Assembly (NCBI GenBank): GCA_007376145.1
Contig: VMFP01000007.1
Location: 1 to 54,070 of the forward strand
DNA length: 54,070 nucleotides
Direction: 5' to 3'
DNA from: Parcubacteria group bacterium Gr01-1014_38
Lineage (GTDB): Bacteria; Patescibacteriota; Andersenbacteria; UBA10190; CAIZMI01
Below, one piece after another: positions 1 through 50,200 of the stretch; positions within the stretch are counted from its first letter, which is position 1, and every line of letters begins with the position of its first letter. The position numbers were made by a program, and so were the translations under genes. The notes under the pieces are model-generated. The model saw only the letters and a list, made by a program, of their open reading frames with translations, had not been told where the DNA came from and made no database searches.

Positions 1-16
1 CCGCACCGACCATAAG

Positions 17-44
17 AAAAAGCGGCTTCCGTCTCGGAAGCCGC
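17..44 (-). terminator. Intrinsic terminator read on the minus strand, just beyond the left end of the CRISPR array
   Basis: A 9-bp stem GCGGCTTCC/GGAAGCCGC (22-30/36-44) closes a 5-nt loop. On the minus strand it is followed by a T5 run (A-run 17-21 on the plus strand). Confidence 0.55.
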
Positions 45-75
45 GGAAAGGACAACCATTGCTCCCCATCCTCGA

Positions 76-795
76 GTCACCACCTCCTCCCCCCGTCTGT
101 ATGGAGGTTCGGACGGCCGAAATCTCCTCGGTGAGTTGGATTAGCCCGTCACAACCTCCTCCCCCTCTGTACGGAGTTCGGGACTCTTGTCAAAACCCTG
201 TTGAACTTGCAGCCGTCACAACCTCCTCCCCCTCTGTACGGAGTTCGGGACTATACTCCGTGAGTACCTCGGCATGGATGCTCGTCGTCACAACCTCCTC
301 CCCCTCTGTACGGAGTTCGGGACGGAGGGACCAGCCGACCACCTCTCGTGTGAAGTCACAACCTCCTCCCCCTCTGTACGGAGTTCGGGACTCGGCCAGG
401 CAACGGGGTGTTCGACCATCAGTCACAACCTCCTCCCCCTCTGTACGGAGTTCGGGACGCAGAAGAATCCGCCCGGCCTTTCGACAGAGTCACAACCTCC
501 TCCCCCTCTGTACGGAGTTCGGGACTGGGATTGAAAAACGAAGAGGGATTGCAGGCGTCACAACCTCCTCCCCCTCTGTACGGAGTTCGGGACGGTCTCC
601 CACCGAAGAGGCTCATCGACACTGTCACAACCTCCTCCCCCTCTGTACGGAGTTCGGGACGGTCTGAAGTATTCGCGCAAGTTCCTCTAAGTCACAACCT
701 CCTCCCCCTCTGTACGGAGTTCGGGACACCGGGGAAACCGAGCCGATCAAGCTCGATGGTCACAACCTCCTCCCCCTCTGTACGGAGTTCGGGAC
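76..795. CRISPR. CRISPR array of 11 repeats (10 identical 37-nt repeats plus 1 decayed terminal repeat) and 10 unique spacers
   Basis: The repeat GTCACAACCTCCTCCCCCTCTGTACGGAGTTCGGGAC starts at 148, 215, 287, 355, 422, 489, 557, 624, 691 and 759. A decayed 39-nt copy lies at 76-114. Spacer lengths are 33, 30, 35, 31, 30, 30, 31, 30, 30 and 31 nt, with no two alike. The decayed left repeat and the minus-strand terminator at 17-44 suggest minus-strand transcription. Confidence 0.95.
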
Positions 796-1243
796 TATTC
801 CGTTTTTCCCTTTGGAGAGCGGTTTTCCGATGGGCGTTCTCCTGGAGAAGGGAGCAATACCTCGGGGGTGGTCTTCCGTGAGGATATTCCCCCTCTCGGC
901 CGCTCTCGGGACGTTTCCCAAACGAACAAACAATGGGGAGGCCAGGGGGTGAGTCCCCCTGGTTCGGCTTCGGGCCAGTGAGGGATCGTGTGAATGATCC
1001 CTCTCCTTCTCCGGAGGCGCCACGCTCTCCTTCAAAGAGAGCGCTTCACCTCCCTGGCCAACGCGCACGTGCACGAAGTCCCAGGGTCAATTCCGGGGTG
1101 CGCTTTGGGAGTGACAAGGCCTTGGGTACTAGCGGGTTGTCGAGGGAGCAGGGCAGGAGAGAGTGTACCCGTGAAGCGGGAGGCGTCAAGGGGGCCTCCA
1201 AGGTGACCGGCAGGAGGCCGTGATGATGCTTCGCCCCGGTTGC
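796..1243. other. ORF-poor structured intergenic region, a putative CRISPR leader and/or non-coding RNA, containing a half-copy of the repeat
   Basis: The A/T-richer segment 796-850 abuts the last repeat. Positions 888-912 match the 3' 25 nt of the repeat at 18/25 (blocks TCCCCCTCT and TCGGGAC). Perfect hairpins lie at 942-962 (8 bp), 980-1003 (8 bp) and 1023-1043 (7 bp). The only ORFs here overlap each other on opposite strands, and one runs into the last repeat. Confidence 0.4.
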
Positions 1244-1867
1244 TCACTGCCGACTCACCACTGCCTGGACGGGTTTGAAGGAGGGCCGATGGATCGGCGT
1301 GGGACCGAGCTTCTTTAGCGCCCGCTGGTGCGCTGGCGTGCCGTAACCCTTGTGTCCCGCGAAGCCGTAGCCCGGATATTGCTGGTCCAGTTCTGTCATG
1401 AGCGCATCACGGTGGACCTTCGCGACAATCGAAGCGGCGGCGATCGAGCGGACCTTCCGGTCTCCCTTGATCACCGCCTCGTGGTACCAGGGAAGATCGG
1501 GGATCTGGTACGCGTCGGTCAAGACGGCATCCGGCGGTGGCCGAAGCGCGGCGAGTGCACGGCGCATCGCTTCTACCGCGGCCCAGTGGAGATTTAAGGT
1601 TGCGATCTCGCGCGGGCTGGCATCACCCACCGCCCACGTGATGGCCGATCGCTGGATATGTTCCGCGAGCCGTACACGCTGAGGTTCGGTGAGGGTTTTA
1701 CTGTCGCGGACGAAATCAATGCGGATTTCCACTGGAAGGATGACCGCCGCGGCCACCACCGGTCCGGCCAAACACCCCATGCCCACCTCATCGACGCCGG
1801 CGACCAGCCGGAACCCGCGATTCCACAGCGTGCGTTCGAACCGGTAGGTTGTGCGAAGCGGACTCAT
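1244..1867 (-). CDS. rnhB: Ribonuclease HII
   Basis: 207-aa ORF with the motifs GVDEVGMGCLAGPVVAAAV, DSKTLT, IKGD, SIAAASIVAKV and GYGFAGHKGYGT, typical of RNase HII. Confidence 0.9.
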   Translation of the reverse strand: MSPLRTTYRFERTLWNRGFRLVAGVDEVGMGCLAGPVVAAAVILPVEIRIDFVRDSKTLTEPQRVRLAEHIQRSAITWAVGDASPREIATLNLHWAAVEAMRRALAALRPPPDAVLTDAYQIPDLPWYHEAVIKGDRKVRSIAAASIVAKVHRDALMTELDQQYPGYGFAGHKGYGTPAHQRALKKLGPTPIHRPSFKPVQAVVSRQ

Positions 1868-2998: not shown

Positions 2999-5900
2999 TT
3001 GGAGCGAAGAACGAACATGACGCCACCAGTCTCTTGGTCGGAGACGCGAGCGACCGAGTCTCCCTCCGCGCCGACTTCTGTTTCTCTGCCTTCCAAAGAG
3101 CGAACAGAAACCCGCCGAAAAGGTCTTACTGTTCCACGACGTTTCACGACGCCCGGCGTTGACCCGTTGACGACCGTGCGGTGGGACAAACGCGTCTCAC
3201 GGATCCGCGATGAGTCCGGGAACGTCATTTTCGAACTCCGCGACATCGAGGTTCCCAGTTCCTGGAGCCAGGTGGCCACCGACGTTATGGTAAGCAAGTA
3301 CTTCCGCCGCGCCGGGGTTCCACAGCACCACCCCGATGGGACTCCGAAACTCCATCCCGACGACTCGCCGGTCCTCGGCGGCGAAACGTCTGCGCGACAA
3401 GCCATCCACCGGCTTGCCCTCGCCTGGCGCTGGTGGGGAGAGCAGTACGGATATTTCGCGACGCCACAGGATGCCGAGGCGTTTTTCGACGAGGTCACGT
3501 ACATGTTGGTGCACCAGATCGTCTCGCCGAATTCCCCGCAATGGTTCAACACCGGACTGAAGCTCGCCTACGGCATCAGCGGTCCTCCCCAAGGGCATTG
3601 GTACGTGGACCAGGAGACGCGGGAACTTCGGCAGTCGGAGGATGCGTATACTCGCGCGCAGGCGCACGCCTGTGGGCGCTGGGATACCAAACTCTTCACC
3701 GAGGAGGGCATCCTTAACCTGGGCGAGATCGTGGAGAAAAACCGCACGGGGCTTCGGGTGTTTGATGGGGAACGATGGGTGCGGACTCTTGCGGTGAAGA
3801 GCAATGGAGTCCGGAAGCTCTTCCGCGCGACTTTGAAGAATGGTCAGTACCTCGAATTCACGGATGACCATCTTGTTTGGGCGTCCGTGACTCCCCGCCG
3901 AATAGGCGGCCAGTGTGCCTGGGTTCCTCTCCGGGAGTGCCTCGGCCGTCGCGTTCAGGTTGTACGGGCTCCAGAGGGAGTGCGGGCGCGCGTCCCCGTT
4001 CGGACTGCCGAAGCAGCACTGGCGGGGTATCACATTGGAGACGGCTACACGGGGACGTACGACGGCATTACGCACTTCGGTGTCGCCACCGTCACGAACG
4101 ACGAGTTTGGGTACGCGACGCGGCTCTTCCGTGAGGTGTTTGGTGCCTACACGGTGACGGAGAAACCGCAGGTGAGTCCTCTCTACCGCATCGTGCGCCA
4201 TGACTTTACGCACACGCGCCCGTTTTCTGATCTATACGAGCTCGGGCGCGGGAGCCGAAACGTTGGGGTCCCCGATGTGATCTTTACCGCCCCGCGAAAG
4301 GTTCAGGCGGCGTTCCTTCAGGGGCTCTTCCAAGCCGATGGGTGCGTGCGCATTCGGAGACAAGGAAACTGGCGGGCTGGCAATATCTGTCTTACCACGG
4401 TTTCCGAGCGCCTCGCGCACGACGTCCAGACACTTCTTCTTGGGTTGAGTATCCACTCTCGAGTGAGCTTTGAACGCGACGACCGGCCTGGTCGTGCCGG
4501 TACGTATCAGGTCATCATTGCGTACGACTCGGAACGCCGCCGGTTCGCCGAGTTGATCGGTTTTCCCACTCATGAGAAGCAGGCGAAGTTGCGCCGCTTA
4601 AACGCGGAGGTCGTTGGTAAGGCGAAGGCTGCGATCTCCGAAGAGGAGGTGGTCTCCATCGAGCCGATCGGCGAGGAAGAGGTCTACGATATCCAGACGG
4701 AGAGTGGGAAGTTCCTCGCGAACGGAGTCGTTGTCCACAACTGTTTCATCCAATCGGTGAAGGACGCGATCCTGGGGGACGGGGGCATCATGGACCTCGT
4801 CGAGCGCGAGGCGCGCATCTTCAAGTATGGGTCGGGGACCGGGACGAACTTCTCCACGCTCCGCGCAGAGGGGGAGCCCGTCTCCGCAGGCGGGACTGCC
4901 TCCGGCCTCATGAGCTGGCTTCGGATCTACGATCGCGCCGCCGCCGCCGTCAAGAGCGGCGGCACCACCCGGCGTGCGGCGAAGATGGCCATTGTCAACA
5001 TTGATCACCCGGATATTGAGAAGTTCATTTGGTGGAAGGCCGACGAGGAAAAGAAGGTTGCGGCGCTGGTTACCGCCGGATACTCGAGTGACTTCAATGG
5101 CGAGGCCTACCAGACCGTTGCTGGGCAGAATTCCAACAATACTGTCCGCGTCACGAACGAATTCCTGCGGGCGGTAGAGAACGATGCGGATTGGCATCTC
5201 CGCTGGCGGACGGATCCGGACCACATCAGTAAGACGATCAAGGCGCGGGGGCTCTGGCGGGATATCGCCGAGGCGGCGTGGCAGAGTGCTGATCCGGGCG
5301 TCCAGTACGACACCACCATCCAGGAGTGGAATACCTGTCCGGCCTCCGGGCGCATCAACGCGACCAACCCCTGCTCCGAGTACGTCTTCCTCGATGAGAC
5401 GGCGTGCAACCTTGCCTCCATCAACTTCATGAAGTTCGTGGACTCCGAGACCGGTGCGTTCGACGTGGAGGGATACGTGCACACCATCCGTCTCTGGACG
5501 GCCGTTCTCGAGATCACCGTCGCCATGGCCCAGTTGCCCTCCAAGGACATCGCCCTCGGGACATACAACTTCCGGACGCTGGGGCTCGGGTATGCCAACC
5601 TCGGCACGCTGCTCATGGTCTGGGGCGTTCCGTACGACAGCCCGAAAGCCCGGGCGATTGCCGGAGCCCTCACGGCCATTCTCACGGGAGAATCCTACGC
5701 GATGTCCGCAGAGCTCGCGGCGATCCTTGAGCCCTTTCCCGAGTACGGAAAGAATCGCGAGCAGATGCTCCGGGTGATCCGGAACCATCGCCGCGCCGCC
5801 TACGATGCGCCGCCGGAGAAGTACGAAGGACTCTCGGTGAAACCCGTGGCCATTGACCAAGAGCTCTGCCCGGAGGGCTTGCGGAAAGTCGCCCACCGAG

Positions 5901-7429
5901 CATGGGACCGAGCGCTCGAGCTCGGCGAGAAATACGGGTACCGGAATGCGCAAGTGACGGTCATTGCTCCCACCGGCACCATCGGCCTCCAGATGGACTG
6001 CGATACCACGGGGGTGGAGCCGGATTTCGCGCTCGTGAAGTTCAAGAAGCTCGCCGGCGGCGGGTATTTCAAGATTGTGAACCAGTCGGTCCCGCGTGCG
6101 CTCAAGACGCTCGGGTACACGCCGGGAGAAATCGCGGATATCGTGCAGTACGTCACGGGGACTCTTTCCTTCAACAATGGGGTCCCCCACCTCAACCGAG
6201 ACACGCTGCTCGCCAAGGGATTCGCCGATGACGACCTCGGTCGTCTGGAGCAGCAGCTCCCCGGCGTCTTCCATCTCTCTATGGCGTTCACTCCCACCAT
6301 CTTCGGGGAAGAGCTGCTCCGTCGCCTCGAGCTCCAGGAGAAGGCGAAGGAGAGCCCAACCCTCAACATCCTCGGAGCACTCGGCTTTTCCCTTCAGCAG
6401 ATTGAAGAAGCCAACGAAGTCATCTGCGGCCGACAGACGGTCGAGGGCGCGCCGCACCTCAAGCCCGAGCACCTTCCCGTGTTCGACTGTGCGAACAAGT
6501 GCGGTCTGAAGGGCGTGCGGTTCATTCCCTACGACGGTCACGTGAACATGCTCGCTGCCGTCCAGCCCTTCGTCTCCGGCTCGATATCGAAGACCATCAA
6601 TATGCCGGCCGAGGCCACCGCGGAGGAGATCGAGCGGGTGTACTGGGAGGGATGGAGGCTCGGCCTGAAGGCGAACGCGCTCTACCGCGACGGGAGTAAG
6701 ATGAGCCAGCCGCTCTCCACGAAGTCCAGCGATGAGACTGCAGGCGTGCGGGTCGTGGAGAAAGTCGTCGAGAAAATTATCGAACGGCCCCGGCGGGTGA
6801 AGCTCCCGCGGGAACGCTCGGCCATGACGCGGAAGGTGAACCTGGCCGGAGAGGAATTCTATCTCACGGTGGGGCTCTACCCCGACGGGAAGCCGGGAGA
6901 ACTCTTCATTACCATGGGGAAGGAAGGCTCTTTCGCCTCCGGCTTGGCCGATGCGTTTGCGAAGATGGTGAGCTTGAGCCTCCAGTACGGCGTTCCCCTC
7001 GAGAATCTCATTCGCCAGCTCCGCCACATGCGGTTCTCGCCGGACGGGTTTACCGGCGACCCGGATATTCCGACGGCGAGCTCGGTCACAGACTTCTTGG
7101 CTCAATGGTTGCAGAAGACCTTCCCGAACGGCGTGCACACGGAGATGGGAAAGTTGCCATTGCCCAGCGGAAATAAGCAGCAGGCGCACATCTCTGCCAC
7201 GTCTCCCAGTATCACGGAGGACATGGAAGACGCGCTGGCGGCCCAGAACGGAGGCCCCGCTTCTCTGTCCCCGACGTCTGGCACGGTCGTGACCTTTGCG
7301 CCCAACCAGCCACTCCACGGGTACGGCTTCACCGGCGACAAGTGCTCTGACTGTGGCTCCCTCCGCATGGTGCAGAACGGCTCCTGCAAGAAGTGTCTGG
7401 ATTGCGGGACAACCACCGGATGCTCGTGA
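2999..7429 (+). CDS. nrdJ: Ribonucleoside-triphosphate/diphosphate reductase, class II (adenosylcobalamin-dependent), intein-containing precursor
   Basis: 1476-aa ORF. It has the N-terminal block GLTVPRRFTTPGVDP..VRWDKR, the active-site block ATNPCSEY and a C-terminal Cys-rich tail (CSDCGS...CKKCLDCG). The start may be 2999 or the ATG at 3017. Confidence 0.9.
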   Translation: MERRTNMTPPVSWSETRATESPSAPTSVSLPSKERTETRRKGLTVPRRFTTPGVDPLTTVRWDKRVSRIRDESGNVIFELRDIEVPSSWSQVATDVMVSKYFRRAGVPQHHPDGTPKLHPDDSPVLGGETSARQAIHRLALAWRWWGEQYGYFATPQDAEAFFDEVTYMLVHQIVSPNSPQWFNTGLKLAYGISGPPQGHWYVDQETRELRQSEDAYTRAQAHACGRWDTKLFTEEGILNLGEIVEKNRTGLRVFDGERWVRTLAVKSNGVRKLFRATLKNGQYLEFTDDHLVWASVTPRRIGGQCAWVPLRECLGRRVQVVRAPEGVRARVPVRTAEAALAGYHIGDGYTGTYDGITHFGVATVTNDEFGYATRLFREVFGAYTVTEKPQVSPLYRIVRHDFTHTRPFSDLYELGRGSRNVGVPDVIFTAPRKVQAAFLQGLFQADGCVRIRRQGNWRAGNICLTTVSERLAHDVQTLLLGLSIHSRVSFERDDRPGRAGTYQVIIAYDSERRRFAELIGFPTHEKQAKLRRLNAEVVGKAKAAISEEEVVSIEPIGEEEVYDIQTESGKFLANGVVVHNCFIQSVKDAILGDGGIMDLVEREARIFKYGSGTGTNFSTLRAEGEPVSAGGTASGLMSWLRIYDRAAAAVKSGGTTRRAAKMAIVNIDHPDIEKFIWWKADEEKKVAALVTAGYSSDFNGEAYQTVAGQNSNNTVRVTNEFLRAVENDADWHLRWRTDPDHISKTIKARGLWRDIAEAAWQSADPGVQYDTTIQEWNTCPASGRINATNPCSEYVFLDETACNLASINFMKFVDSETGAFDVEGYVHTIRLWTAVLEITVAMAQLPSKDIALGTYNFRTLGLGYANLGTLLMVWGVPYDSPKARAIAGALTAILTGESYAMSAELAAILEPFPEYGKNREQMLRVIRNHRRAAYDAPPEKYEGLSVKPVAIDQELCPEGLRKVAHRAWDRALELGEKYGYRNAQVTVIAPTGTIGLQMDCDTTGVEPDFALVKFKKLAGGGYFKIVNQSVPRALKTLGYTPGEIADIVQYVTGTLSFNNGVPHLNRDTLLAKGFADDDLGRLEQQLPGVFHLSMAFTPTIFGEELLRRLELQEKAKESPTLNILGALGFSLQQIEEANEVICGRQTVEGAPHLKPEHLPVFDCANKCGLKGVRFIPYDGHVNMLAAVQPFVSGSISKTINMPAEATAEEIERVYWEGWRLGLKANALYRDGSKMSQPLSTKSSDETAGVRVVEKVVEKIIERPRRVKLPRERSAMTRKVNLAGEEFYLTVGLYPDGKPGELFITMGKEGSFASGLADAFAKMVSLSLQYGVPLENLIRQLRHMRFSPDGFTGDPDIPTASSVTDFLAQWLQKTFPNGVHTEMGKLPLPSGNKQQAHISATSPSITEDMEDALAAQNGGPASLSPTSGTVVTFAPNQPLHGYGFTGDKCSDCGSLRMVQNGSCKKCLDCGTTTGCS
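3671..4741 (+). mobile_element. Intein with a LAGLIDADG homing-endonuclease domain inserted in nrdJ
   Basis: It begins at the Cys codon TGT at 3671, after ..AQAHA. It ends ..VVVHN (AAC 4739-4741) and is followed by the +1 Cys of CFIQSV. Two LAGLIDADG-like blocks are present (ALAGYHIGDGY, FLQGLFQADGCV). Length is 357 codons, in frame. Confidence 0.85.
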
Positions 7430-9473: not shown

Positions 9474-10244
9474 ATGCGCGTGGTTTCATTGGCACCGAGC
9501 GCGACAGAAATTTCCTTCGCCCTCGGGTGTGGCGATCGGCTGATCGCCCGGACAGCATTCTGCGACTATCCGCCGGAAGCGCACCATGTCCCCGCGGTTG
9601 GCGGCTGGACGACGGCCAACGTTGAGTCCGTTGTTGCGCTCAAGCCCGATCTCGTACTCACCTCCACATTTCTTCAGGACAGCATTGTGGCGGAGCTGCG
9701 CGCACGAGAGCTGCAGGTCTGCCACACCGATCCGCGAACATTCCTGGATGTTTTAGAGACCTTTGAGACCATTGCTGGCGCTCTCGGCGTTCCCGAGCGT
9801 GGAAAAGAGCTCCGTGCGCACACCGAGGCAGAGCTTCGTGTCTACGTCCCGACCCCGATGCCGTCCTCCCCCACGGTGTACGCCGAAGAATGGCATGAAC
9901 CACCCATGGCCTCTGGGAATTGGGTTCCGGACCTTATCACGGCCGCTGGCGGGCAGTCCTTCCTTCCACCAGGGGAGCGGAGTCGGAAGGTCACGCTGAA
10001 CGAAGTCCAGCAGTTCGATCCCGATGTCGTCGTGCTGAATTACTGCGGGATGGAGCGTGTGAATCCCGACGCGCAGCGGTCGCTTCTCATGACGCGTCCG
10101 GGGTGGGACACTCTTCGCGCCGTGCGCGCTGCGCATGTGTTCGTCGTACCGGATTCACTGCTGAACCGGCCAGGCCCCCGGCTCGCTGCCGGAGTGCAGG
10201 CCATTCGCCAGGCGGTCGTGGCGGCTTACGCCATCACCTTGTAG
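9474..10244 (+). CDS. Periplasmic-binding-protein type 2 family, BtuF-like corrinoid/iron-chelate binding protein
   Basis: MRVVSLAPSATEISFALGCGDRLIARTAFCDYPPEA..VPAVGG..NVESVVALKPDLVLTS resembles the BtuF N-lobe. No signal peptide or lipobox is seen at the ATG at 9474. Confidence 0.7.
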   Translation: MRVVSLAPSATEISFALGCGDRLIARTAFCDYPPEAHHVPAVGGWTTANVESVVALKPDLVLTSTFLQDSIVAELRARELQVCHTDPRTFLDVLETFETIAGALGVPERGKELRAHTEAELRVYVPTPMPSSPTVYAEEWHEPPMASGNWVPDLITAAGGQSFLPPGERSRKVTLNEVQQFDPDVVVLNYCGMERVNPDAQRSLLMTRPGWDTLRAVRAAHVFVVPDSLLNRPGPRLAAGVQAIRQAVVAAYAITL

Positions 10245-10477
10245 ACAAGCGCTCCTTCTTTGATTTTCTGGTCCACCTTGATTCCGACGGCGTCCCCTTT
10301 TTTCGCGGAGTCAACGGATGCGTGCTCGATTTGCATCGAAGTCACTTCCTGATCAAACTCCTCCTCGCCCCGCTTGAATTTAATCGTGTCGCCAACCGCG
10401 AGCTTGCTGGCAAGCTCGACAATGGCCACACCAACCTTGTCGTAGAAGTGGACCACTTTTCCTACTTCGGTTTCCAT
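10226..10477 (-). CDS. Small EF-Tu domain-2-like beta-barrel protein (translation-factor-like)
   Basis: 83-aa ORF METEVGKVVHFYDKVGVAIVEL..GDTIKFKRGEE..QIEH..V..AKKGDAVGIKV, the pattern typical of stand-alone EF-Tu_D2-like proteins. Confidence 0.6.
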   Translation of the reverse strand: METEVGKVVHFYDKVGVAIVELASKLAVGDTIKFKRGEEEFDQEVTSMQIEHASVDSAKKGDAVGIKVDQKIKEGALVYKVMA

Positions 10478-10566
10478 GGCAGCGATGGCCTGCTACGGAT
10501 AAGTGCTCCTACCGTAGCGCGGTGGCGTCCACAGCGCAAGGGCAGCGATTTTCGTGATGTTTTCTC

Positions 10567-10641
10567 TGGTCGGGGACGAGGGAGTCGAACCCTCTGCCTC
10601 ACGGTCCCGAACCGTGCGTTCTACCGATGAACTAGTCCCCG
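10567..10641 (-). tRNA. tRNA-Pro (anticodon CGG)
   Basis: Reverse-complement cloverleaf: acceptor CGGGGAC/GTCCCCG, anticodon stem CACGG/CCGTG with loop TTCGGGA, T-loop TTCGACT, encoded CCA. Confidence 0.85.
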
Positions 10642-10645
10642 GACA

Positions 10646-10720
10646 TGGTGGACCCGGCGGGACTCGAACCCGCGATCTTTAGCATGCCATGCTAACGCTT
10701 TTCCTCTAAGCTACGGGCCC
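10646..10720 (-). tRNA. tRNA-Ala (anticodon GGC)
   Basis: Acceptor GGGCCCG/CGGGTCC with the G3:U70 alanine identity pair. The anticodon loop is ATGGCAT, and CCA is encoded. It lies 4 nt from tRNA-Pro. Confidence 0.85.
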
Positions 10721-10811
10721 TGAATGTGGAAAGTACCATGTCGGCGCAAAGCGCCCCCGCCGAGCGGCAAAGCCGCGAGGCAACATCCTCATCAAATCGC
10801 GAAAGTATCTT

Positions 10812-10825
10812 ATGGTGGACCCGGC
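10812..10825. repeat. Isolated copy of the tRNA-Ala 3' terminus (att-like direct repeat)
   Basis: ATGGTGGACCCGGC is identical to 10645-10658, the 3' end of tRNA-Ala(GGC). Its first 13 nt also match 12304-12316, the 3' end of tRNA-Ala(CGC). The flanks do not continue as a tRNA. Confidence 0.6.
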
Positions 10826-11064
10826 TGAACGTTCATCTAACCGGGCTGGTGCGCTTATGCCGTGATCCTACGTTGGCTGGGAAACAGACGCACCTCCTCC
10901 GCGAAGTGGGTTTCGCCGCATCAGCATGCCGGACGGTAAGGGGCGTGTAAAGATCACATGGCGGTCTCCGTGTTGACCTTCGTTCTCCTTCTTCCGTAGA
11001 GTGGTGAGGCTCTGTTACCTATTTCCCTCTGTTCGTTTCCAACCACGCAGCGGAAGGAGTCACT

Positions 11065-11832
11065 ATGGTTATTCCGATGACCCGGTACGTTCTCGGCCGG
11101 AGCGAGCGAGCCATATTCGGAGAGATATACTTCCCCAAGCGAGCGGCATACCAAAGCGCAATCTTCGAGGCGCTTCGTCACGGACACGACGAGCGCCTCG
11201 TGAAGAGATACCTGCGACGCAATGCTGGCCATCTCTTGGAAGAGCTCGGGCAGTTTCCGAGACTCTTTGACCCTCATTACTACGAGACCGCCACGCTGCA
11301 TAAGATGCCACCCACGGTTGCGGCGGCGTACGAACGATTCGACATGTATCACTCGTCCTTCAGGGGGTGGTCTGTGTACTCCGTTGACGGCGTGTTCTTC
11401 GATCGCGAAGGACAAATGTACGAGGAGGCAACGCAGGTTGTTCGCATGATGTTTCGTTTCGAGAGTTCATTTGCAGCTCAGGCGGAAGGTGCCGGGTGCT
11501 CGGACGTGCTGCGCAGCATGCTTTTCTGGGCGATCAGCCGGCAAGCGCGACTAGCTGACAATAAGCCCTGGAGCCCCGGTGAGCAGGCACGGTTCGTGGA
11601 AGAGCACGCGCCCTGGTCCAAACGGAAGCGAGCCTTCGTCCAGCGCTACTTTGCCGACATCATCAAGGAAGTCGCGAAGTGGATTGACGACGCTGGCCTC
11701 TTTGTCTTCGGCTATTTGATTCGCAAGTTCTCCGCGCAGGTTCTCATCGAGCGGCTCCGCGAAGAGGAGATTTGGGCAACGAGCCTCTTTAACCTGACCC
11801 TGAGCGTGGTCCGTCGCACGGAGCAGTCCTAA
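11065..11832 (+). CDS. Hypothetical protein (255 aa), no family recognised
   Basis: Long ORF with the Shine-Dalgarno sequence AAGGAG 7 nt upstream of the ATG. It is followed by a coupled small ORF and then an intrinsic terminator. Confidence 0.6.
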   Translation: MVIPMTRYVLGRSERAIFGEIYFPKRAAYQSAIFEALRHGHDERLVKRYLRRNAGHLLEELGQFPRLFDPHYYETATLHKMPPTVAAAYERFDMYHSSFRGWSVYSVDGVFFDREGQMYEEATQVVRMMFRFESSFAAQAEGAGCSDVLRSMLFWAISRQARLADNKPWSPGEQARFVEEHAPWSKRKRAFVQRYFADIIKEVAKWIDDAGLFVFGYLIRKFSAQVLIERLREEEIWATSLFNLTLSVVRRTEQS

Positions 11833-11851
11833 CACCCATTGAAAGGAGCAT

Positions 11852-12082
11852 ATGATGGTTTCTCCGCACATCGCAGAATTGGTCCGAGAAATCTTTGCCT
11901 GCTACGGCGAGGAGATCGAGTGCGAGGCAAAGAAAGATCCCGAAGCCTACCTCGTTTACCTTCTTACCGCCATCAAGGAAGAACTGCCGCATGTCTGGGC
12001 GACCCTGCAGTCCACGGTCGAGGAAGCGACGCTCCGGTACCACGAGGAGGCTACCAAAGGTCAGCGCCAGCGTGCTAAGTAA
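11852..12082 (+). CDS. Hypothetical small acidic protein (76 aa)
   Basis: AAAGGAG lies 6-9 nt upstream of the ATGATG start. The ORF begins 19 nt after the upstream ORF, and a terminator lies 10 nt downstream. Confidence 0.5.
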   Translation: MMVSPHIAELVREIFACYGEEIECEAKKDPEAYLVYLLTAIKEELPHVWATLQSTVEEATLRYHEEATKGQRQRAK

Positions 12083-12091
12083 CCCTGTTTG

Positions 12092-12121
12092 AGACCGGGC
12101 CATCGTGTCCGGTCTTTTTCT
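12092..12121 (+). terminator. Intrinsic terminator of the two-gene cassette
   Basis: Stem AGACCGG/CCGGTCT (12092-12098/12109-12115) followed by TTTTTCTTT. Confidence 0.6.
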
Positions 12122-12304
12122 TTGGCTATACGTACCGCCCGGACAAGTCCACCATCTGCCATGCTCCGATCGCGTCCCATGAACAGAGTCGGCGCGGTTC
12201 CATTCCTTCATTCGTGTCGAGCACTGTTCTCTGCCTGGTGATTGAACCGAACTTTTTGGCTTTACAGCGCGGGGAAACGGCGCTGGAGTACTGTTCTGTC
12301 TGAA

Positions 12305-12379
12305 TGGTGGACCCGGGGGGATTTGAACCCCCGACCCCGGCAATGCGAATGCCGTGCTCTACCACTGAGCTACGGGCCC
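12305..12379 (-). tRNA. tRNA-Ala (anticodon CGC)
   Basis: Acceptor GGGCCCG/CGGGTCC with G3:U70, anticodon stem CGGCA/TGCCG with loop TTCGCAT, T-loop TTCAAAT, encoded CCA. Confidence 0.85.
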
Positions 12380-12476
12380 TGGCATGCTGACAAGGAGCGG
12401 CCCCAGCGTAGCGTAAAGCAGTCGAGGTTTCCACTTGGCGTCGAGAGGAAGATAATGAGCACGAGGAACTTAAAGG

Positions 12477-13241
12477 ATGTCGAGTGCTCTGAAAAAAGTT
12501 CTCGGTATTGTCTTGATTCTGCTCGGCCTTCTTGCGCTGCTTACGCCGCTGACGCCGGGATCCTGGCTCATCATTGTCGGGGCGGAGCTCCTCGGCTTCC
12601 GACTTCTCTTTTTGGCACCGCTACGGAAGTGGTTTTCCAGGTTTCCATGGAGCGCACGGCCGTCCCCCACCCTCACGCTCGCAGGTGATCCGCGCACTCG
12701 CCGCCTGCTCTGGGGGGCCGGGCTGGCGTTCGGCATGGTGGTTTTCTTCGTACTTTTCGCGAGTTGGCGCGTTCGCCAGCAAACATCTCGGGCTTCGCCG
12801 GCTCCTTGGTTTCCACCAGTGATCAGCACGCTTTCCGCGGCGTGCCTCCTCGTTGGATCTCACGCCCTCACCGTGGAACTCGCACGAACACCATCGGAGC
12901 AGGCACGGGGATTGTCCGGTCGAGATACGCTCGGTCCTGACCGCGGGATGCTTTTTGTGTTCCCCACCAACGGCGAGCGCGTCTTCTGGATGAAAGATAC
13001 AAGAATCCCACTCGATTTTCTCTGGATTCGAGAGGGGAAGATTGTCGGGATTACCGCCAATGTCCAACCGGAACCGGGGGTGCCCGATGCCCTCCTCCGG
13101 AAGTACATCTCGCCCGGACCGGTGGACCAGGTTCTCGAGGTCAACGCGGGCTGGTCGGCGACGCATGACATTCGCGTGAGAGACCCCGTCCGCTTCCCCG
13201 ATGGCGAAGAAATGCCGGCCGAAGGAGGTGATCGCCGATGA
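12477..13241 (+). CDS. Membrane-anchored DUF192-domain protein
   Basis: The N-terminal segments are hydrophobic (VLGIVLILLGLLALLTPLTPGSWLIIVGAELLGF). The C-terminal block GLSGRDTLGPDRGMLFVFP..VFWMKDTRIPLDFLWI..GKIVGI is typical of DUF192. Confidence 0.7.
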   Translation: MSSALKKVLGIVLILLGLLALLTPLTPGSWLIIVGAELLGFRLLFLAPLRKWFSRFPWSARPSPTLTLAGDPRTRRLLWGAGLAFGMVVFFVLFASWRVRQQTSRASPAPWFPPVISTLSAACLLVGSHALTVELARTPSEQARGLSGRDTLGPDRGMLFVFPTNGERVFWMKDTRIPLDFLWIREGKIVGITANVQPEPGVPDALLRKYISPGPVDQVLEVNAGWSATHDIRVRDPVRFPDGEEMPAEGGDRR

Positions 13242-20204: not shown

Positions 20205-22289
20205 ATGTCTGTATCCCTCGAGTACTTTGCTCCGGGCGTCACGCTCCTCGCCCTGTTCTACGGCTGGGTTCTGTGGAGCCAGGTGCGTCGCCAAGGAATC
20301 GGAACGCCGGCGATGGAGAAGGTGGCCGCGGCCATCCGTGAAGGAGCACATGCCTTTTTGAAGCGCCAGTACCGGACGATCCTCGGGCTTTCCCTGGCGG
20401 TCGCGGCGGCGATCGTTGTCGCGTACGGTCTCCTCGGGGGAGGTGGCGGGTGGGTCGTGGGCGGACAGGTCGGAGGCGCGTTCGCCATCGGGGCGGTCCT
20501 CTCCGCGATCGCGGGAGTGGCGAGCATGGTCGTCGCGGTGCGCGCGAACGTGCGGACGGCGCACGCGGCAGCGTCGGGCTTAAACGCCGCGCTCACCACC
20601 GCCCTCCGCGCCGGAGCGGTCTCCGGCATTCTCATTGTTGCACTCTCCGTTCTCGGCGTGGCGGCGCTGTACCTCTTCTACCGGTTCCTCGGAGTGGATC
20701 CGTCGCGGATTCCCGCGCTGGTTGTCGGCTACGGCTTTGGGGCGAGCTTTGTGGCCTTGTTCGCCCAACTTGGGGGCGGCATCTACACGAAAGCCGCGGA
20801 CGTCGGTGCCGACCTCGTGGGGAAGCTGGAGGCGGGTATTCCGGAGGACGATCCGCGGAACCCTGCGGTCATCGCTGACCTCGTCGGCGACAACGTCGGG
20901 GATTGCGCGGGTCGTGGCGCAGACCTCTTCGAGAGCATCTCTGCCGAGAGCATCGGCGCGATGGTGCTCTCCGCGGCCCTCTTCCCGATTTTCGGAGTGA
21001 AAGGCGTCCTCTTTCCGTTGGTCCTGCACGCGCTCGGCCTCGTCGCGACCATACTCGGTCTCCAGATTGTCCGCGCGCGCGACGGGGAGCCGCCGATGCG
21101 CGCCCTCACCCGCGGCTTTTGGCTCACCACCGCCCTCGCGGTCGTCGCTCTCTTCTTCACCACCAAGCTGCTCTTGTCCGCGCAGGGCGTGGACACCCGC
21201 TGGCTGTTCGGCGCGGGACTCGTCGGGATTCTCACGGCCATCGCCTTCGTCTACATCACCGACTACTACACGGGGAAGCGGTATCGCCCAGTCCAGGCCA
21301 TCGCAAAATCCTCGCAGACGGGCCATGGGACGAACATCATCACCGGCATGGCGGTGGGGATGGAATCCACGGCGCTCCCGGTGATCGCCGTCTCGCTCGC
21401 GCTGCTGCTCTCCTTCGCGTTCGGGACGCGGGCGCTCGCTGGCGCCGAGGTGAGCACCGCGCTCGCCGGGCTCTACGGGACGGCGGTCGCCACCATGGGG
21501 ATGCTCGCCACGGTCGGCTACATCCTCGCGATGGACATGTACGGGCCGATTACCGACAACGCGGGGGGCATTGTGGAAATGAGTAACGCGCCGGAGAGCG
21601 CCCGCCGGGTGACGGATGAACTCGACGCCACGGGGAACACCACGAAGGCGATCACGAAGGGCTACGCCATCGGCTCTGCCGCCCTCGCGGCGTTCCTTCT
21701 CTTCTCCGCGTACCTCGAGGAGTCCGACATTGACGTCGTGGACCTGGCGCAGGTTCCGGTGTTCGTCGGCGCGCTCCTCGGCGCCATGGTCGTCTTCCTC
21801 TTCGCGTCGCTCGCCATCCGGGCGGTCGGTCGCGCCGCGAGCATCATTGTGGAAGAGGTGCGCCAGCAGTTCCGGTCGCGGCCGGGGATTCTGTCGGGAA
21901 CCGAACAGCCGGACTACGCGCGGGCGGTGGACATTGCCACAAAGGGCGCGCTCCGGAACATGGTGCTCCCAGGGCTCCTTGCCGTGGCGGCGCCCATTGT
22001 CGTCGGCCTGCTCCTCCGCGCGGAAGCAGTGGCCGGGTTCCTCATGGTCGGCACCATTGCCGGCGTGCTCCTTGCCGCAGTCTTAAACAACAGCGGCGCC
22101 GCCTGGGACAACGCGAAGAAGTTCATCGAGGCCGGCAACTACGGCGGGAAGAAGAGCCCGGCGCACCAAGCGGCCGTCACGGGAGACATGGTGGGCGATC
22201 CCTTCAAAGACACCGCGGGACCCTCGTTGCACGTCCTCATTAAACTCTTCTCGACGCTCACCCTGGCGCTGGCGGCGTTGTTCGTCTAG
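20205..22289 (+). CDS. hppA: Membrane-bound proton-translocating pyrophosphatase, K+-independent type
   Basis: The start [11 protein letters not shown].. is at ATG 20205, in frame within the longer track ORF. The motifs are [26 protein letters not shown] and [19 protein letters not shown] (Lys in GNTTKA indicates the K+-independent class). Confidence 0.9.
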
Positions 22290-22403
22290 TCGGTCACTCC
22301 TTGGGGGCTTGACAGAGGAACGGTGCGGTGGATAGGGCGCTTCGTCTATAGCGAAGGGTCGCGCAATGCGGAACAGTATGGGAAGGGAGGTGAAATACCA
22401 CCC

Positions 22404-22988
22404 ATGATTCGATTGATTACCAGCGGGCTCATCGTGTTCGGCGTGCTCGCTGCCGTTGCCGGTCTTTCGAGCGCGTTGTTCACCACGAATCCGGTGACGA
22501 TCAGCGGGAACACCTTCTCGACCGGGACTGCCGGGCTCGGAATCGCCCGGGATTGGGATGAGAAATATGAAGATAGTATTAAAGGCGAGATGTTTGATGA
22601 TCTGGTTCCCGGGGGGGATCCGGCGCATTCTGACTTCTGGTTGTGGAACCGCAGCACTGCCCCGATCGAACTCAATTTGCAGACCGAACTCCTGAAGATC
22701 ACTGCCCCCGACGATCTGAAGCAGGATCTCATGATTGCGTTCTCCTGCGATGTCGGCAATGACGGCCCCGGGGACAGAGATGGCTCTATTCCCGCGATGA
22801 GTCTCGCCGACTGGGAAAAGAAAGGCGTCATCGGAAAGCTTGGGATCCTCGGAGAGAACGGTCCCCCTGATGGCAAAGGAACGGACGAGGCACGGTGCAC
22901 GATGACCGCGAACCTCGACGAGAAGAGCAACGCCCAGGGAGAAACGGCCACGTTCGACGCGCAGTTCACCGGTGAGCAGAAGCTCTAA
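22404..22988 (+). CDS. TasA/camelysin-like secreted protein with a SipW-type signal peptide
   Basis: MIRLITSGLIVFGVLAAVAGLSSALFTTNPVTISGNTFSTGTAGL matches the SipW-cognate signal/N-terminal pattern (..F(T/S)..NTF.(A/T)GT..L). GGGAGGTGA lies upstream of the ATG at 22404. Confidence 0.65.
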   Translation: MIRLITSGLIVFGVLAAVAGLSSALFTTNPVTISGNTFSTGTAGLGIARDWDEKYEDSIKGEMFDDLVPGGDPAHSDFWLWNRSTAPIELNLQTELLKITAPDDLKQDLMIAFSCDVGNDGPGDRDGSIPAMSLADWEKKGVIGKLGILGENGPPDGKGTDEARCTMTANLDEKSNAQGETATFDAQFTGEQKL

Positions 22989-23081
22989 GACCGACGGATG
23001 GCTGGACATGAACGTGAGGACCGGGGAGATCTCGTACGGAGTCTGTTGTTCCTCCCGGTCCTCCGGACCGTGGTGCCAGCG

Positions 23082-23951
23082 ATGAGTCAACGGATTTTCT
23101 TGGGACAGCGTGTCGATAGCGTGCGCGCGATGCCGCCGAGGCTTCTCCCTCGCCGTCGGCCGGTCCGTGTTCCCCGCCGTGGCGCGCGCATCCTGCGCGG
23201 CGCGCTGCGACTGCTCGCCGCGGCGGTGATCACCACGGGAGGCACCATCGTGTTCGCGGTCACGCTGCAGGGCGCGCAGCTCTACACGGTGCTCTCCGGG
23301 AGCATGGAGCCGGCGATTTCCACGGGGTCGGTCGTCGTCGTTGCGCCTGCGCAGGGAAACCGCGCGCCGTACCAGAGCGGCGACGTCATCACCTTCCGCG
23401 CAGCGGGTGGCGGAGCGCCCGTCACCCACCGCGTGCTCGGCGTTCGCCACGATGCCGGGCGCGTGCGGTACCGCACGAAGGGCGATGCGAATCCGTCCCC
23501 CGATGCGCAGGAGGTCCTGCAGCAGAGCGTCGTGGGGAAGACCCTGGTGAGCGTTCCGTTCCTGGGGTACGTCCTCGTCGCCATGCGAACGCCGATCGGG
23601 TTTTTGTTCTTGATCCTCCTCCCGGCGACCCTCGTCATCCTCCATGAACTGAACGTGATGCGGGGAGCGTGGAAGGAACTCCGCCCGTCCCGCTTTGCGT
23701 CCGCGGGGGTTTTTGGAGCCGTCGCGCTCGCAGCGGGCGTCGCGATGACGACCAGCGGGCTGTTCTCGGACACCGTCGTGATGCGCTCGACCACGATCGC
23801 GGTGAAAGAAACACCACCCGCGCCCGCAGCACGGCGTGCAGAACCTTCCCCCAGTCAAACGCCGACGCCGACCGCGTCTCCCTGCGCCTTCGGTGACGGG
23901 GGGTGCGATCAGACGCAGACAACTCACGACGACGATCACGAGCACCGTTGA
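23082..23951 (+). CDS. sipW: Signal peptidase I, SipW/archaeal type
   Basis: Motifs are YTVLSGSMEPAISTGSVVVV, GDVITF, PVTHRV and RYRTKGDANPSPD, plus a C-terminal TM segment (IGFLFLILLPATLVILHEL). The start is uncertain (23082, or 22998 as in the track). Confidence 0.75.
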   Translation: MSQRIFLGQRVDSVRAMPPRLLPRRRPVRVPRRGARILRGALRLLAAAVITTGGTIVFAVTLQGAQLYTVLSGSMEPAISTGSVVVVAPAQGNRAPYQSGDVITFRAAGGGAPVTHRVLGVRHDAGRVRYRTKGDANPSPDAQEVLQQSVVGKTLVSVPFLGYVLVAMRTPIGFLFLILLPATLVILHELNVMRGAWKELRPSRFASAGVFGAVALAAGVAMTTSGLFSDTVVMRSTTIAVKETPPAPAARRAEPSPSQTPTPTASPCAFGDGGCDQTQTTHDDDHEHR

Positions 23952-47285: not shown

Positions 47286-50200
47286 TCACTCACCCGGCGT
47301 GGTGAAGCTGTAGTAGGCGTCGAACGCGTGCTGCCCCCGCAGATCCGTGGCGAGCACCTCGAAGAAGATCTTGGTGCCCCGCGGGAGGAGCCGGAGGACG
47401 AGGCGGTGGCGCGTGGTGAAGCTGTCCTCGAAGCGTTCCTCGCCGTAGAGCGGGGAAGGCCCAAAGTTCACCTTCCCCCGGGCGAGGCGGTTCGTCTGCC
47501 AGGTGACCACCGCGGAGGTCTTGGTCAGATCGGCGACGGACACGTCGGTGATCCGGAGCGGTTCCGCATAGACGCGGCGGGCGGTTTCGACGGCGCCGCG
47601 GACGAGGACGCTCGCCGCGCGGAGGCCGCGGCCCGCGGGGGCCACGAGGCGGGCCACCCGACGCTCGCTCTCCGTCGCGAGCGTCAGCCGCTCCTCGCGG
47701 GCGCGCACGAGAATCCCTCGAATTCGGGACCACAGCGTTGTGGTGGTGACGACGAGACGGCCGGTGACCTTGGGAATGAAACCGGAGAGATCGGAGAGCG
47801 CGGCGTCGCGACGCTCGGCCAGGGAGAGATCGGGCGGATCCGCCTTGCTCTGCCGCGCCAGCGTGCGGAGGGCGGCGAACTCCCGGGCGGAGAACCCAAA
47901 GAGGGAGGCGAGACGCGTCCGGACGGTCCGGATAGCGGTGCGCGCGGCGCTCCGGAGGGTTTTGGTGACCGAAGCAATCGTGGCGTCGAGACGCTCGAAC
48001 GCGCCTTGGGGAAGCAGGCGCTCGAGGAACTCCTGGAGGTTCCTCGCCTCCCGCAGCCGGCGGATCTTTGCGGCCTTCTCCAGCTCCTGGAGCTGGAGCG
48101 CCGTGGGTGTCCTGGAGGGAGTTTCCCCTCTCCGGATCCGCTCCGCGATGTCCTCGAGGGAGGGTGGCGGTTTGGCGAGGTCACTCGCGAGGGTCGGCGC
48201 GGTCGTGTCAATCGTGACGGTCCGTGCGGCGAGGGTGGCCTCGTTTCCGAACGCGTCCGCCGCCCAGAGCTTCACGGTGTACGTGCCGTCGGGAAGCGGG
48301 GAGAGGGGAGCGATGGTCGTGGAGACGGTGGCGGTCTTGGTGAGCGCGCGGTCATTGTCCTGATCCCATTCGGAAGCGAGCGTGGCATCCCGCTCGGCCA
48401 CCGCAGTCGATTCCCGCCCATACCAGAGCTCGTAGTGGCTGAAGTCCTCCTCGGCGACGGGAGTCCAGGAGGCGCGAAGCGTGCTGCCGGACGCGGCCAC
48501 CGAGAAGGACGTGAGACCCCGCGGGGCTTCGTCGTCGACTTGAAAGCGGGAGGAGGTCACCGCGGTGCCGTCAACGGTCGAGTCATTCGGGGTGACGCGG
48601 ACTCTCACGAGGGTCGGACGGGAATCGATCGCGCCGCCCCCGTTGTCGGCGTGCTTCGTGTTCCAGGCGACCGTGAGGAGGGCGTTCCCGCGGTTCGTGG
48701 GGATGCCGGTGAGCTGGTACGTCACGGTACTCCCGTTGCTCACGGTCACGTTCCCCGCGGTGGAGGAAGCCGAGGCGATGTACGCCTGCCGCCAGTTGCT
48801 CCCGTCGTCGAGGGAGTACTGGACCCGGAGGCGCGTCTGGTTGTTATCCGGGTCAGAGAGGAGTGTTTGGAAGGAGGCGTACCCGGAACCGTCGGTGGCT
48901 TGCGCGGGGGTCGTGAGGTTCGCGGCGGAGGGAGCGCTATTGAAGTTCCAGCCGGTGTTGTTCCCGGAGTCGGTGATGTTGAGGCCGGCCGTCGTGATGC
49001 CGGTGGCGTTCACGTTGTTGCTGTCCTTCACGTCGAGGTACTCGATGCTCCGCGTTCCTTGCGGATCGATCCGCCACTGCGTGCCGTCGGTGCTGCTGCG
49101 GAGGGAGAGGAGAGCCCCCGAAGCCCCTTTCGCCGTCCAGGTCCCAACGACGGTCTGCGTGCTCGATGCCCCGGAGGGAAAGGTGAGCGTGCGCGCCGTC
49201 GTGACCGTCTTCGAGAGGTTGTTGAACGTCGTCGCGCCGGAGAGCGTCTGATCGGTCCCGTCGAGGGTGACGGTCCCACTGTTATGCGTGAACGTCCCGC
49301 CGCTGTGCGTGAAGTTCCCGGAGACGGTCATGGTGCCGGAGGTGGCGGTGAGGGTCCCGGAGGAGATGGTCACCGCCCCGTTGATGTCGTGGGTCCCCGA
49401 GCCCCCAGTGAAGGTGCCGCCACCCACGGTGAGGGCGCCGACGGTCGTCGCGAGTGTGCCGGGTGAGAACGTGCCCGCGGTGACAGTGAGCGTGCCGTCG
49501 ACGTCAAGGGCATTCGTCGCGAGCGACAGGGTACCCGCGCTCTTGTTCACCGTGAGGTTCTGAAAGTCCTGGCCCGTGCCGGTGCCGCCGGTGGTGAGCG
49601 TCTGGGCTCCCGACCCGTCGAAGGTCACGGTGTTGCTCCCCGAGGTGTACGTCCCGCTGTTGCTCCAGTCCCCCGCAAGGGTGACGTTCTGCCCGTTGCT
49701 GTTTACGGTGCCCGCGGTGATCGTGAGGGTCCCGTTCACGTCGAGGGTGGCCGTGTGGATCCAGGAGCCGCCGGTCCCGTTGAACGTGAGGTGGTTGTAG
49801 CTGTTCCCGGCAACGAGGGAGGTGTACGAAGCCGCCCCGTCGTACGCGACGGTTCCCGAGTCCGTGTCGTTCGTGAAGCCGGTGAGGGTCTCCCCGCCGG
49901 TGAGGCGGAGCGTCGCGTTGTTCACAAAGCTCCCGCCGGTATTCGTCAGGTTCTGCCCATCGAGGTCAAAGGTGCCGGCAGTGAGCGTGAGGGTGCCACT
50001 CACGGTGACGGCGCCATTGGGCTCCCACACGCCTCCGCTCCCGTTGAAGGTGAGGTTGCTGTACGTGTTGCCCGCCGCGAGGGCGGTGGTGTATGAGGCG
50101 GTGCCGTCGTAGGTGACCGTAGAGCCGGAGGAAACCGTATCGATTGTGGAGACGGTCTCCCCGCCCTGGAGTTGCAGTGTCCCGGACGCACTTAAGGTGA

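Follow-up and report, generated by a model that had tools for sequence, protein, structure and literature searches.

A conserved folded RNA in the leader of a Cas1-associated CRISPR array from a Parcubacteria contig, with a possible tracrRNA-like role

The CRISPR locus at the start of contig VMFP01000007.1 from Parcubacteria group bacterium Gr01-1014_38 raises the question of what function resides in the hairpin-rich DNA between its array and the neighboring rnhB gene. The window analyzed here covers the contig in full (54,070 nt). It opens within the final codons of cas1, continues with the CRISPR array (148..795, minus strand; ten identical 37-nt repeats and nine spacers of 30–35 nt; repeat in CRISPR RNA (crRNA) sense, GUCCCGAACUCCGUACAGAGGGGGAGGAGGUUGUGAC), and then with the flank in question (796–1243), which extends to the rnhB stop codon. 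The initial annotation of this DNA had proposed that the flank encodes a trans-activating CRISPR RNA (tracrRNA) on the plus strand. Comparison with related loci firmly supports a different reading, in which the flank is the leader of the array and carries a conserved promoter-like site and a conserved folded RNA on the crRNA strand. That this transcribed, structured leader also supplies a tracrRNA-like scaffold for a Cas12f-like effector is a proposal that we consider about evenly balanced.

Exact 20-mers of the repeat had no match in genome or metagenome contigs, and a second metagenome scan with the repeat gave three chance matches only, in coding repeats. A protein-database search with spurious open reading frames (ORFs) translated from the array led to P0122, a miscalled ‘protein’ of another assembly whose frame starts in a homologous leader and enters homologous repeats, and from there to contig L081; the remaining loci were found via homologues of the L081 Cas1. 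On L081, two arrays of the window’s repeat family converge on a lone cas1, with a flank of ~450 nt each. Homologous flanks were identified beside four further arrays on three other contigs (L081A, L081B, L093A, and L092A; the suffix denotes the leader of array A or B). The leader module of the window spans 796..1195. Homology between leaders starts at the −35 box of a promoter-like site and continues for ~360 nt to the first repeat, and the spacer between the module and the rnhB stop codon (1196..1243) is non-conserved and unlike the DNA upstream of the −35 box in other leaders. In an alignment of the window, L081A, and L081B, mean column identity was 82% over the aligned stretch and higher within the leader, whose upstream 250 nt are nearly invariant among the three copies.

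A promoter scan of positions 1–2000 revealed a single promoter-like site, a sigma-70-like sequence (TTGACG-16-TACACT) on the minus strand at 1189..1162 with a predicted start near 1155. It lies ~390 nt from repeat 1, and no terminator was found between the structured RNA described below and the array. Promoter-like sites were called at the same place in L081A, L081B, and L093A; the L092A site reads TTGACA-17-TAGACA and is located at the contig start. A leader–repeat junction motif (796..810, minus strand; sense GGGAAAAACGGAAUA) is kept in L081B and L093A, differs by one change in L081A, and is absent in L092A; the form GGAAAAACGGAAUA is common to the window and L093A. Just downstream of the predicted transcription start lies the motif CCCUCGACAAC (1136..1146, minus strand), which recurs identically or with one difference in the 5′ untranslated region (UTR) of the cas operons of L087, L090, and L091. 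In these UTRs of S15-like/cas12f-like operons, the motif takes the form (C)CCTCGACAA(C/T) (L087:~92–108, L090:~212–224, and L091:~184–196) and is preceded by a small hairpin; leader and operon may have this operator or RNA motif in common.

The opposite end of the array carries a decayed terminal, i.e., oldest, repeat (76..112, minus strand) and a predicted intrinsic terminator of the array transcript (22..44, minus strand; a 10-bp stem followed by TTTTTCTTAT). The same terminator element follows the arrays in L081, L091, L092, and L093, and decayed repeats together with a terminator mark the cas1 end in every locus examined. Because of this arrangement, transcription is predicted to run from the promoter through the leader into the repeats on the minus strand. 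The initial annotation had likewise assumed minus-strand transcription of the array, which the terminator (44..22) and the decayed repeat at the left end support. Its description of the flank as non-coding holds as well. The flank lies on the leader side, next to the newest repeat and at the other end of the array from the decayed copy and the terminator, and the same layout is found in L081, L093, and L092.

The flank region folds better than shuffled sequences on both strands (z −4.2 and −3.4). The three perfect hairpins previously noted at 942–962, 980–1003, and 1023–1043 are present and correspond to elements that we term H_E, H_C, and the inner stem of H_B. They are conserved beside related arrays, where their positions are kept and their sequences have changed with compensatory substitutions. 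The leaders L093A and L092A belong to loci with Cas1 proteins ~50% identical and with repeats and G+C content differing from the window. Five elements, H_A, H_B, H_C, H_E, and H_G, recur in the same order in these leaders, H_C in two of three lineages; in L092A, H_A, H_B, H_E, and H_G are all present with different sequences. The stem-loop H_A (1063..1103, minus strand, as are all following elements) has the outer stem GCGCAC:GUGCGC, which becomes GGGCC:GGCCC in L092A, and an asymmetric internal loop, A(C/U)(U/G)UCGU(N)CAC at 1069–1079, conserved in three lineages. The long hairpin H_B (1013..1053) contains an internal loop and the inner stem at 1023–1043, and its sequence is unrelated across three lineages. 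The 8-bp hairpin H_C (980..1003) keeps its stem in L081B with a different loop, and H_E (942..962), a perfect 8-bp hairpin followed by a U-rich linker, has 7–8 bp across leaders, its position holding CAUGUGC/GCACAUG in L093A and CCUGCUGU/ACAGCAGG in L092A. Finally, the small hairpin H_G (877..899; consensus GGAGGAAUAUCC), whose 5′ arm is a purine tract, is found in all five leaders.

Two of these elements distinguish the strands. H_B folds better in sense than in antisense in five of five leaders (e.g., −29.7 vs. −20.1 kcal/mol), and the different H_C stem of L093A folds only on the minus strand (−9.0 vs. −4.3 kcal/mol). Both differences are due to G·U pairs, which thus favor the minus strand, i.e., the predicted crRNA strand. 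To quantify covariation, we built a covariance model of H_A and H_B from the window and the two L081 copies, since the distant leaders were misaligned by MAFFT and RNAalifold. The model found L093 at the right place (22.7 bits, E ≈ 0.003–0.006) and nothing else credible; it did not recover L092. In the model alignment, which comprises four sequences only and is fitted to the model, 96% of cells are paired and six H_B/H_A pairs are changed on both sides, a count reached by 1 of 500 shuffles, with 0–1 in slid controls. No Rfam family matched the leader RNA at gathering or E-value thresholds. A potential pairing of the H_A loop (..GUCAC) with the repeat 3′ end (GUGAC) spans 5 nt in L092 and 3–4 nt elsewhere and was set aside.

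Between the hairpins and the array, the leaders carry the motif AGGUAUU, located 67–68 nt upstream of repeat 1 in five of five leaders, which equals one repeat–spacer unit. Directly after it follows an inverted copy of the cognate repeat. In L092A, this copy can form 29 bp with the repeat at −34.4 kcal/mol, whereas shuffles give −19.7 ± 3.8 and non-cognate repeats −22 to −28 (P < 0.001). L081A reaches 26 bp, and the first 16 nt are the best 16-mer of the respective leader in both L081A (P = 0.001) and L081B (P = 0.007). In the window, the motif (856–862) and the copy occupy 826..862 on the minus strand, with a pyrimidine tract (GCUCCCUUCUCC) at 844–855; this segment is the sole anti-repeat-like element that the sequence of the flank offers, and it is eroded. 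Complementarity scans of the whole leader by RNAduplex and Smith–Waterman, on both strands, were uninformative, as the G-rich repeat gives a high background.

Which effector such an RNA could serve is indicated by the genes of the related loci. Their recurrent order is leader, array A, terminator, promoter, a ~100-aa gene, a 564–611-aa gene, short cas1, and a terminator, followed in opposite orientation by array B and its leader; most of the contigs end inside arrays, and the L092 locus is complete. The 564–611-aa proteins match the PADLOC Cas12f model PDLC01689 (E = 5.8e−64, profile positions 12–461 of 471, and 3.8e−58), so that the family is already covered by this profile, and their own family profile gave weak matches to the Cas12f structures 9nzo, 9nzr, and 9i8y. 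A Cas12f-like gene accompanies relatives of the adjacent Cas1 in nine of ten family loci examined, all but L081 (L086:8188–9945, L087:460–2277, L090:584–2410, L091:571–2397, L092:1142–2977, and L088:8264–9958 are examples). The system is therefore type V-like rather than type I or III, a point on which the initial annotation had made its tracrRNA depend. In the Cas12f-like proteins, the Asp of RuvC motif I is invariantly His (LGvHfG) and motif II retains its Glu; the C-terminus follows ~40 residues behind the motif preceding the zinc finger, and neither the zinc finger nor motif III is present. The combination of an intact RuvC D-E-D triad with a C-terminal zinc-finger/target-nucleic-acid-binding domain is thus not found in this family. 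By sequence, these effectors are predicted to be nuclease-dead, yet they are encoded beside Cas1 and arrays of varied spacers.

The ~90–123-aa gene preceding the cas12f-like gene encodes a paralogue of ribosomal protein S15 in six of six loci (L086:7900–8169, L087:148–456, L090:271–579, L091:243–557, L092:761–1132, and L093:669–1013 on the minus strand), with PF00312 E-values from 1e−10, above Pfam’s cut-off, to 4e−2. In L093, a tblastn search placed the S15-like and cas12f-like genes divergently upstream of the leader. In the literature searched, we found no description of an S15-like gene in a Cas12f-type operon. The family Cas1 proteins comprise 231–296 aa and lack the N-terminal domain, as their Pfam and PADLOC matches begin at about profile position 80 (L081:10803–11642, minus strand; P0123–P0133). 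They are rare, with 11 matches in an index of 5.8 billion proteins. Neither cas2 nor cas4 was seen in any locus; the adaptation module consists of the short Cas1 only and departs from the Cas1 plus Cas2 (and Cas4) that type V-F systems carry where they have an adaptation module.

These observations suggest a mechanism in which the sigma-70-type promoter at 1189..1162 would start a transcript near 1155 that crosses a multi-helix RNA of ~360 nt and then the repeats, yielding the structured RNA and the crRNAs from one strand. The 5′ RNA, comprising H_A, H_B, H_C, H_E, H_G, the U-rich linker, and AGGUAUU, would form a tracrRNA-like scaffold with its body upstream. At its 3′ end, one repeat–spacer unit before repeat 1, the inverted copy would pair with the purine-rich 3′ half of the repeat, and in the relatives, the locus-encoded S15-like RNA-binding protein may bind the assembly. 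The scaffold proposal draws on the Cas12f-like nature of the effector, since characterized Cas12f enzymes use a guide of ~200 nt that combines tracrRNA and crRNA, on the repeat being only 37 nt long, on the complete L092 locus, where no other sizeable non-coding region is conserved across relatives, and on the S15-like RNA-binding partner encoded alongside. It presupposes that the leader RNA is produced, undergoes processing, and binds the effector, and that the window’s residual weak pairing would suffice.

Several results weigh against a scaffold function. The window encodes no effector, S15-like, or further cas1 homologue, and L081 lacks an effector gene on the ~10 kb visible on one side of its locus. 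The inverted copy is marginal in L093A, where seven perfect pairs (UCCCUAU:AUAGGGA) track the locus’s own repeat (P = 0.07), a possible anti-repeat in the L095 leader is not significant, and in the window only the pyrimidine tract, paired to GGGAGGAGG, is left (P = 0.2–0.7). Across the three closest copies, moreover, no part of the leader is less conserved than the 826–862 segment. Neither folding energies nor z-scores of the whole leader tell the strands apart, and the comparison comprises three to four independent lineages only. Moreover, related nuclease-dead Cas12f (dCas12f) proteins are reported to work without a tracrRNA (PMC12259090). The eroded anti-repeat of the window, the lack of an effector in view, and these tracrRNA-free proteins make an ordinary but unusually long leader a serious, if on balance unlikely, rival; it would comprise a promoter, operators, Cas1 integration signals, and a structured 5′ UTR acting only on transcript stability, processing, or attenuation, with no part in a guide scaffold. 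The flank has the position, the promoter, and the conserved junction motif expected of such a leader, and the CCCTCGACAAC motif shared with the cas-operon 5′ UTR suggests a common operator. The fixed AGGUAUU spacing of exactly one repeat–spacer unit fits an integration ruler at the DNA level as much as a function in RNA, and the anti-repeat of the window has eroded although the ten repeats are identical. However, ~250 nt of covarying helices with G·U pairs on one strand argue for selection on a large RNA fold, which DNA sites or a simple UTR would not need. Judging from the characterized family, the 37-nt repeat alone would also be short for a Cas12f/TnpB-type scaffold, and the cognate anti-repeat of L092A is very strong.

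The plus-strand tracrRNA of the initial annotation, which would start near 880, use 888–912 as its anti-repeat, and end in the three hairpins as a 3′ tail, is very improbable. A tracr-like RNA is plausible in kind, since characterized Cas12f family members need a tracrRNA, and the half-repeat at 888–912 (TCCCCCTCTCGGCCGCTCTCGGGAC) indeed matches the 3′ 25 nt of the repeat at 18 of 25 positions, in blocks of nine and seven. Its direct orientation would make a plus-strand RNA complementary to the crRNA repeat, and the match is modestly above chance in dinucleotide shuffles of 796–1243 (P ≈ 0.007 with this 25-mer as query and ≈ 0.02 when all 25-nt repeat windows on either strand are allowed). However, the sole promoter-like site in 1–2000 is on the minus strand, conserved, and at the edge of conservation, and no plus-strand terminator follows the hairpins. 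The duplex of this segment with the repeat (−39.6) is matched by 16% of shuffles, and the best plus-strand duplex is at chance level in L081A and L081B (~50% of shuffles, P ≈ 0.5). In these closest relatives, the homologous segment reads TTCCTCCTCCGGCCGCTCTCGGGGCG and is not repeat-like, the best matches (14–16 of 25) being elsewhere, and the segment shows no changes that follow the altered repeats in L093 and L092. The TCCCCCTCT block of the half-repeat is one arm of the conserved H_G, G·U pairs favor the opposite strand, and on the transcribed strand, the hairpins fall in the 5′ body of the RNA instead of forming a 3′ tail. Alternatively, the flank could be neutral debris of old repeat–spacer units, direct or inverted, that have decayed within the leader and now serve no function. 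In favor are two repeat-like fragments, 888–912 (direct) and 826–855 (inverted); the latter precedes repeat 1 by one unit and so keeps the phase, and its rate of decay varies between copies. We consider this improbable, as the distance of 117 nt between the start of the half-repeat and repeat 1 does not fit the phase of the 67–68-nt unit, the upstream 250 nt are nearly invariant in three copies, and compensatory changes keep the helices in loci with different repeats and G+C content. The chance that the flank encodes a small protein is close to nil. The only ORFs of >90 aa, 933..1223 on the plus strand (96 aa) and 760..1074 on the minus strand (104 aa), had already been dismissed as genes, and this dismissal stands; the latter enters the last repeat. 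A gene caller did make the similar P0122 elsewhere, but this product passes from leader into repeats, consists partly of translated repeats, and has no Pfam domain. Since the three homologous flank copies differ by frame-breaking indels of 1, 3, 4, 6, and more nt, no reading frame is preserved, and conservation follows helices, not codons.

With the leader-embedded scaffold as the favored reading, its closest known counterparts include the tracrRNAs of type V-F (Cas12f/Cas14) systems and of other type V systems whose tracrRNA gene neighbors the array. The effector of the relatives is Cas12f-like, a long multi-helix RNA lies directly beside the array, and in the relatives, this RNA carries an inverted repeat copy at its 3′ end. 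Cas12f1 works with a single RNA of about 200 nt (PMC12255294). The RNA described here differs in lying within the leader, downstream of the sole predicted promoter, so that it would be co-transcribed with the array instead of forming a separate transcript. Furthermore, it is ~330–360 nt long, its anti-repeat is weak in the window, the effector family lacks an intact RuvC site, and no sequence or Rfam similarity to known RNAs was found. With canonical CRISPR leaders, which place a promoter and integration signals beside the newest repeat, the flank shares its position opposite the decayed repeat, a promoter directed into the array, a conserved A-rich junction motif, and conservation between arrays with the same repeat. 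In contrast to these, its promoter is ~390 nt away, and a conserved, covarying folded RNA ending in an inverted repeat copy lies in between; typical leaders are not known for a covarying folded transcript or for a terminal inverted repeat copy.

Parallels also exist to type V systems with unusual effectors or helper RNAs. The scoutRNA of Cas12c and Cas12d is a structured helper RNA with minimal repeat complementarity from Cas1-only type V loci of candidate-phyla bacteria. Here, in contrast, the repeats are 37 nt and the spacers 30–35 nt long, the effector is Cas12f-like, the RNA is far longer, and a short conserved anti-repeat could not be established. Cas12k of the CRISPR-associated transposons (type V-K) is likewise a nuclease-inactive Cas12 relative; its guide complex includes a large tracrRNA, and host S15 belongs to this RNA–protein assembly as an integral component that contacts the tracrRNA (PMC9798831). 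The loci studied here have an S15-like gene in the effector operon. Unlike in the Cas12k system, however, this S15 is a dedicated paralogue and not the host ribosomal protein, no transposition genes are present, and Cas1 and growing arrays are. The dCas12f clades of the dCas12f–sigmaE work have a C-terminal truncation that removes part of the RuvC site and occur near CRISPR arrays (PMC12259090), and the family described here is similarly truncated, array-associated, and incomplete in its RuvC site. Bacteroidetes are the reported hosts of these clades, which are described as lacking a tracrRNA and, for the most part, adaptation genes (PMC12259090). The present family comes from candidate-phyla bacteria, where it is accompanied by a short Cas1, a convergent pair of arrays, and an S15-like gene.

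As for the surroundings of the array, the cas1 remnant (1..45, plus strand) belongs to a short gene convergent with the array. The assignment is based on positions 1–67, which align to the cas1 3′ end and terminator of L081 with ~80% DNA identity; the peptide RTDHKKKRL matches Cas1 C-termini of the form ...KKRLRSEAA*. The frame with the Cas1 C-terminus has no stop over 1–667 (plus strand) and continues through the array as the miscalled 221-aa P0121; compared with L081, the terminator loop has a slightly different length, so that the window cas1 frame misses its usual stop. At 782–803 (plus strand), the last repeat contributes its 3′ end and the junction motif the remainder of a hairpin that resembles a terminator and carries a T-run; it could stop antisense read-through from cas1 and is weaker in L081A. 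On L081, array B consists throughout of the repeat variant that array A has in its leader-proximal position. The two arrays of L093 (1472–1780 and 2733–3295) flank one cas1 and have clearly different repeats, GTCAAACTACTGAACCAGTGGATAGGGAGTGGTGAC and, in sense orientation, GGTGAAAACATCGAACCACTGGGTAGGTGTTGGTGAC. Spacers of the window had no match within the window or the retrieved loci of the relatives, and viral contigs yielded nothing relevant when scanned with two spacers, the junction motif, and the Cas12f-like profile.

The array module is an insertion. An exact-sequence look-up of RnhB returned no record, and the closest rnhB loci come from three metagenome-assembled genomes labelled Candidatus Saccharibacteria (L001–L003; RnhB identity 64–78%), which have no array and no similarity to window positions 1–1300. 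On L081, the module (9640–12660) consists only of leader, array, cas1, array, and leader and is inserted between fusA, together with a response-regulator gene, and tuf of the str operon; the L086 module is located near nusA and that of the window abuts rnhB. Given these different neighbors, the module occupies different chromosomal sites.

Elsewhere, the window has a high G+C content, though its closest RnhB relatives are labelled Saccharibacteria, and contains twelve tRNA genes in 54 kb (2667–42640, Rfam) as well as the kind of housekeeping genes expected in a small genome, among them those for H+-pyrophosphatase, trigger factor, RNase Y, and BipA. A 1476-aa ribonucleotide-reductase-like ORF (2999–7429, plus strand) contains an insert (...AHACGRWDT... 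to ...VVHNC) that, judged by eye, is intein-like with a homing-endonuclease domain. Two further long ORFs are encoded on the minus strand, one of 1548 aa (47286–51932) with weak Ig-like domain matches only and one of 620 aa (22083–23945) that overlaps the pyrophosphatase gene and has no Pfam match; neither resembled the Cas12f-like proteins in tblastn.

Taken as a whole, the loci may represent an uncharacterized type V system from candidate-phyla bacteria that is adaptive and binds DNA, relies on a short Cas1 and no Cas2 for adaptation, and has its genes flanked by two convergent arrays. A leader-embedded tracrRNA would be co-transcribed with the crRNAs and assemble with a naturally nuclease-dead Cas12f-like protein and a dedicated S15 paralogue; we put this fuller picture forward tentatively. 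Leaders and tracrRNAs are known, but a tracr-like scaffold inside a long leader, together with its apparent partners, would be new. Should the RNA act only as a regulatory 5′ UTR, what is left is a leader of unusual length and strong conservation. A scaffold role would unite leader and tracrRNA in one transcription unit, which could plausibly stand between TnpB, with its single omega-RNA, and Cas12f, with its separate tracrRNA and crRNA. With the S15 paralogue in the effector operon, the surprising partnership of S15 and Cas12k would no longer be peculiar to one system but would recur. A Cas12f relative of ~600 aa from tiny-genome bacteria that is naturally DNase-dead yet still adaptive would also be of practical interest as a compact programmable DNA binder, a use for which its guide RNA must be known, and the flank described here is the only candidate.

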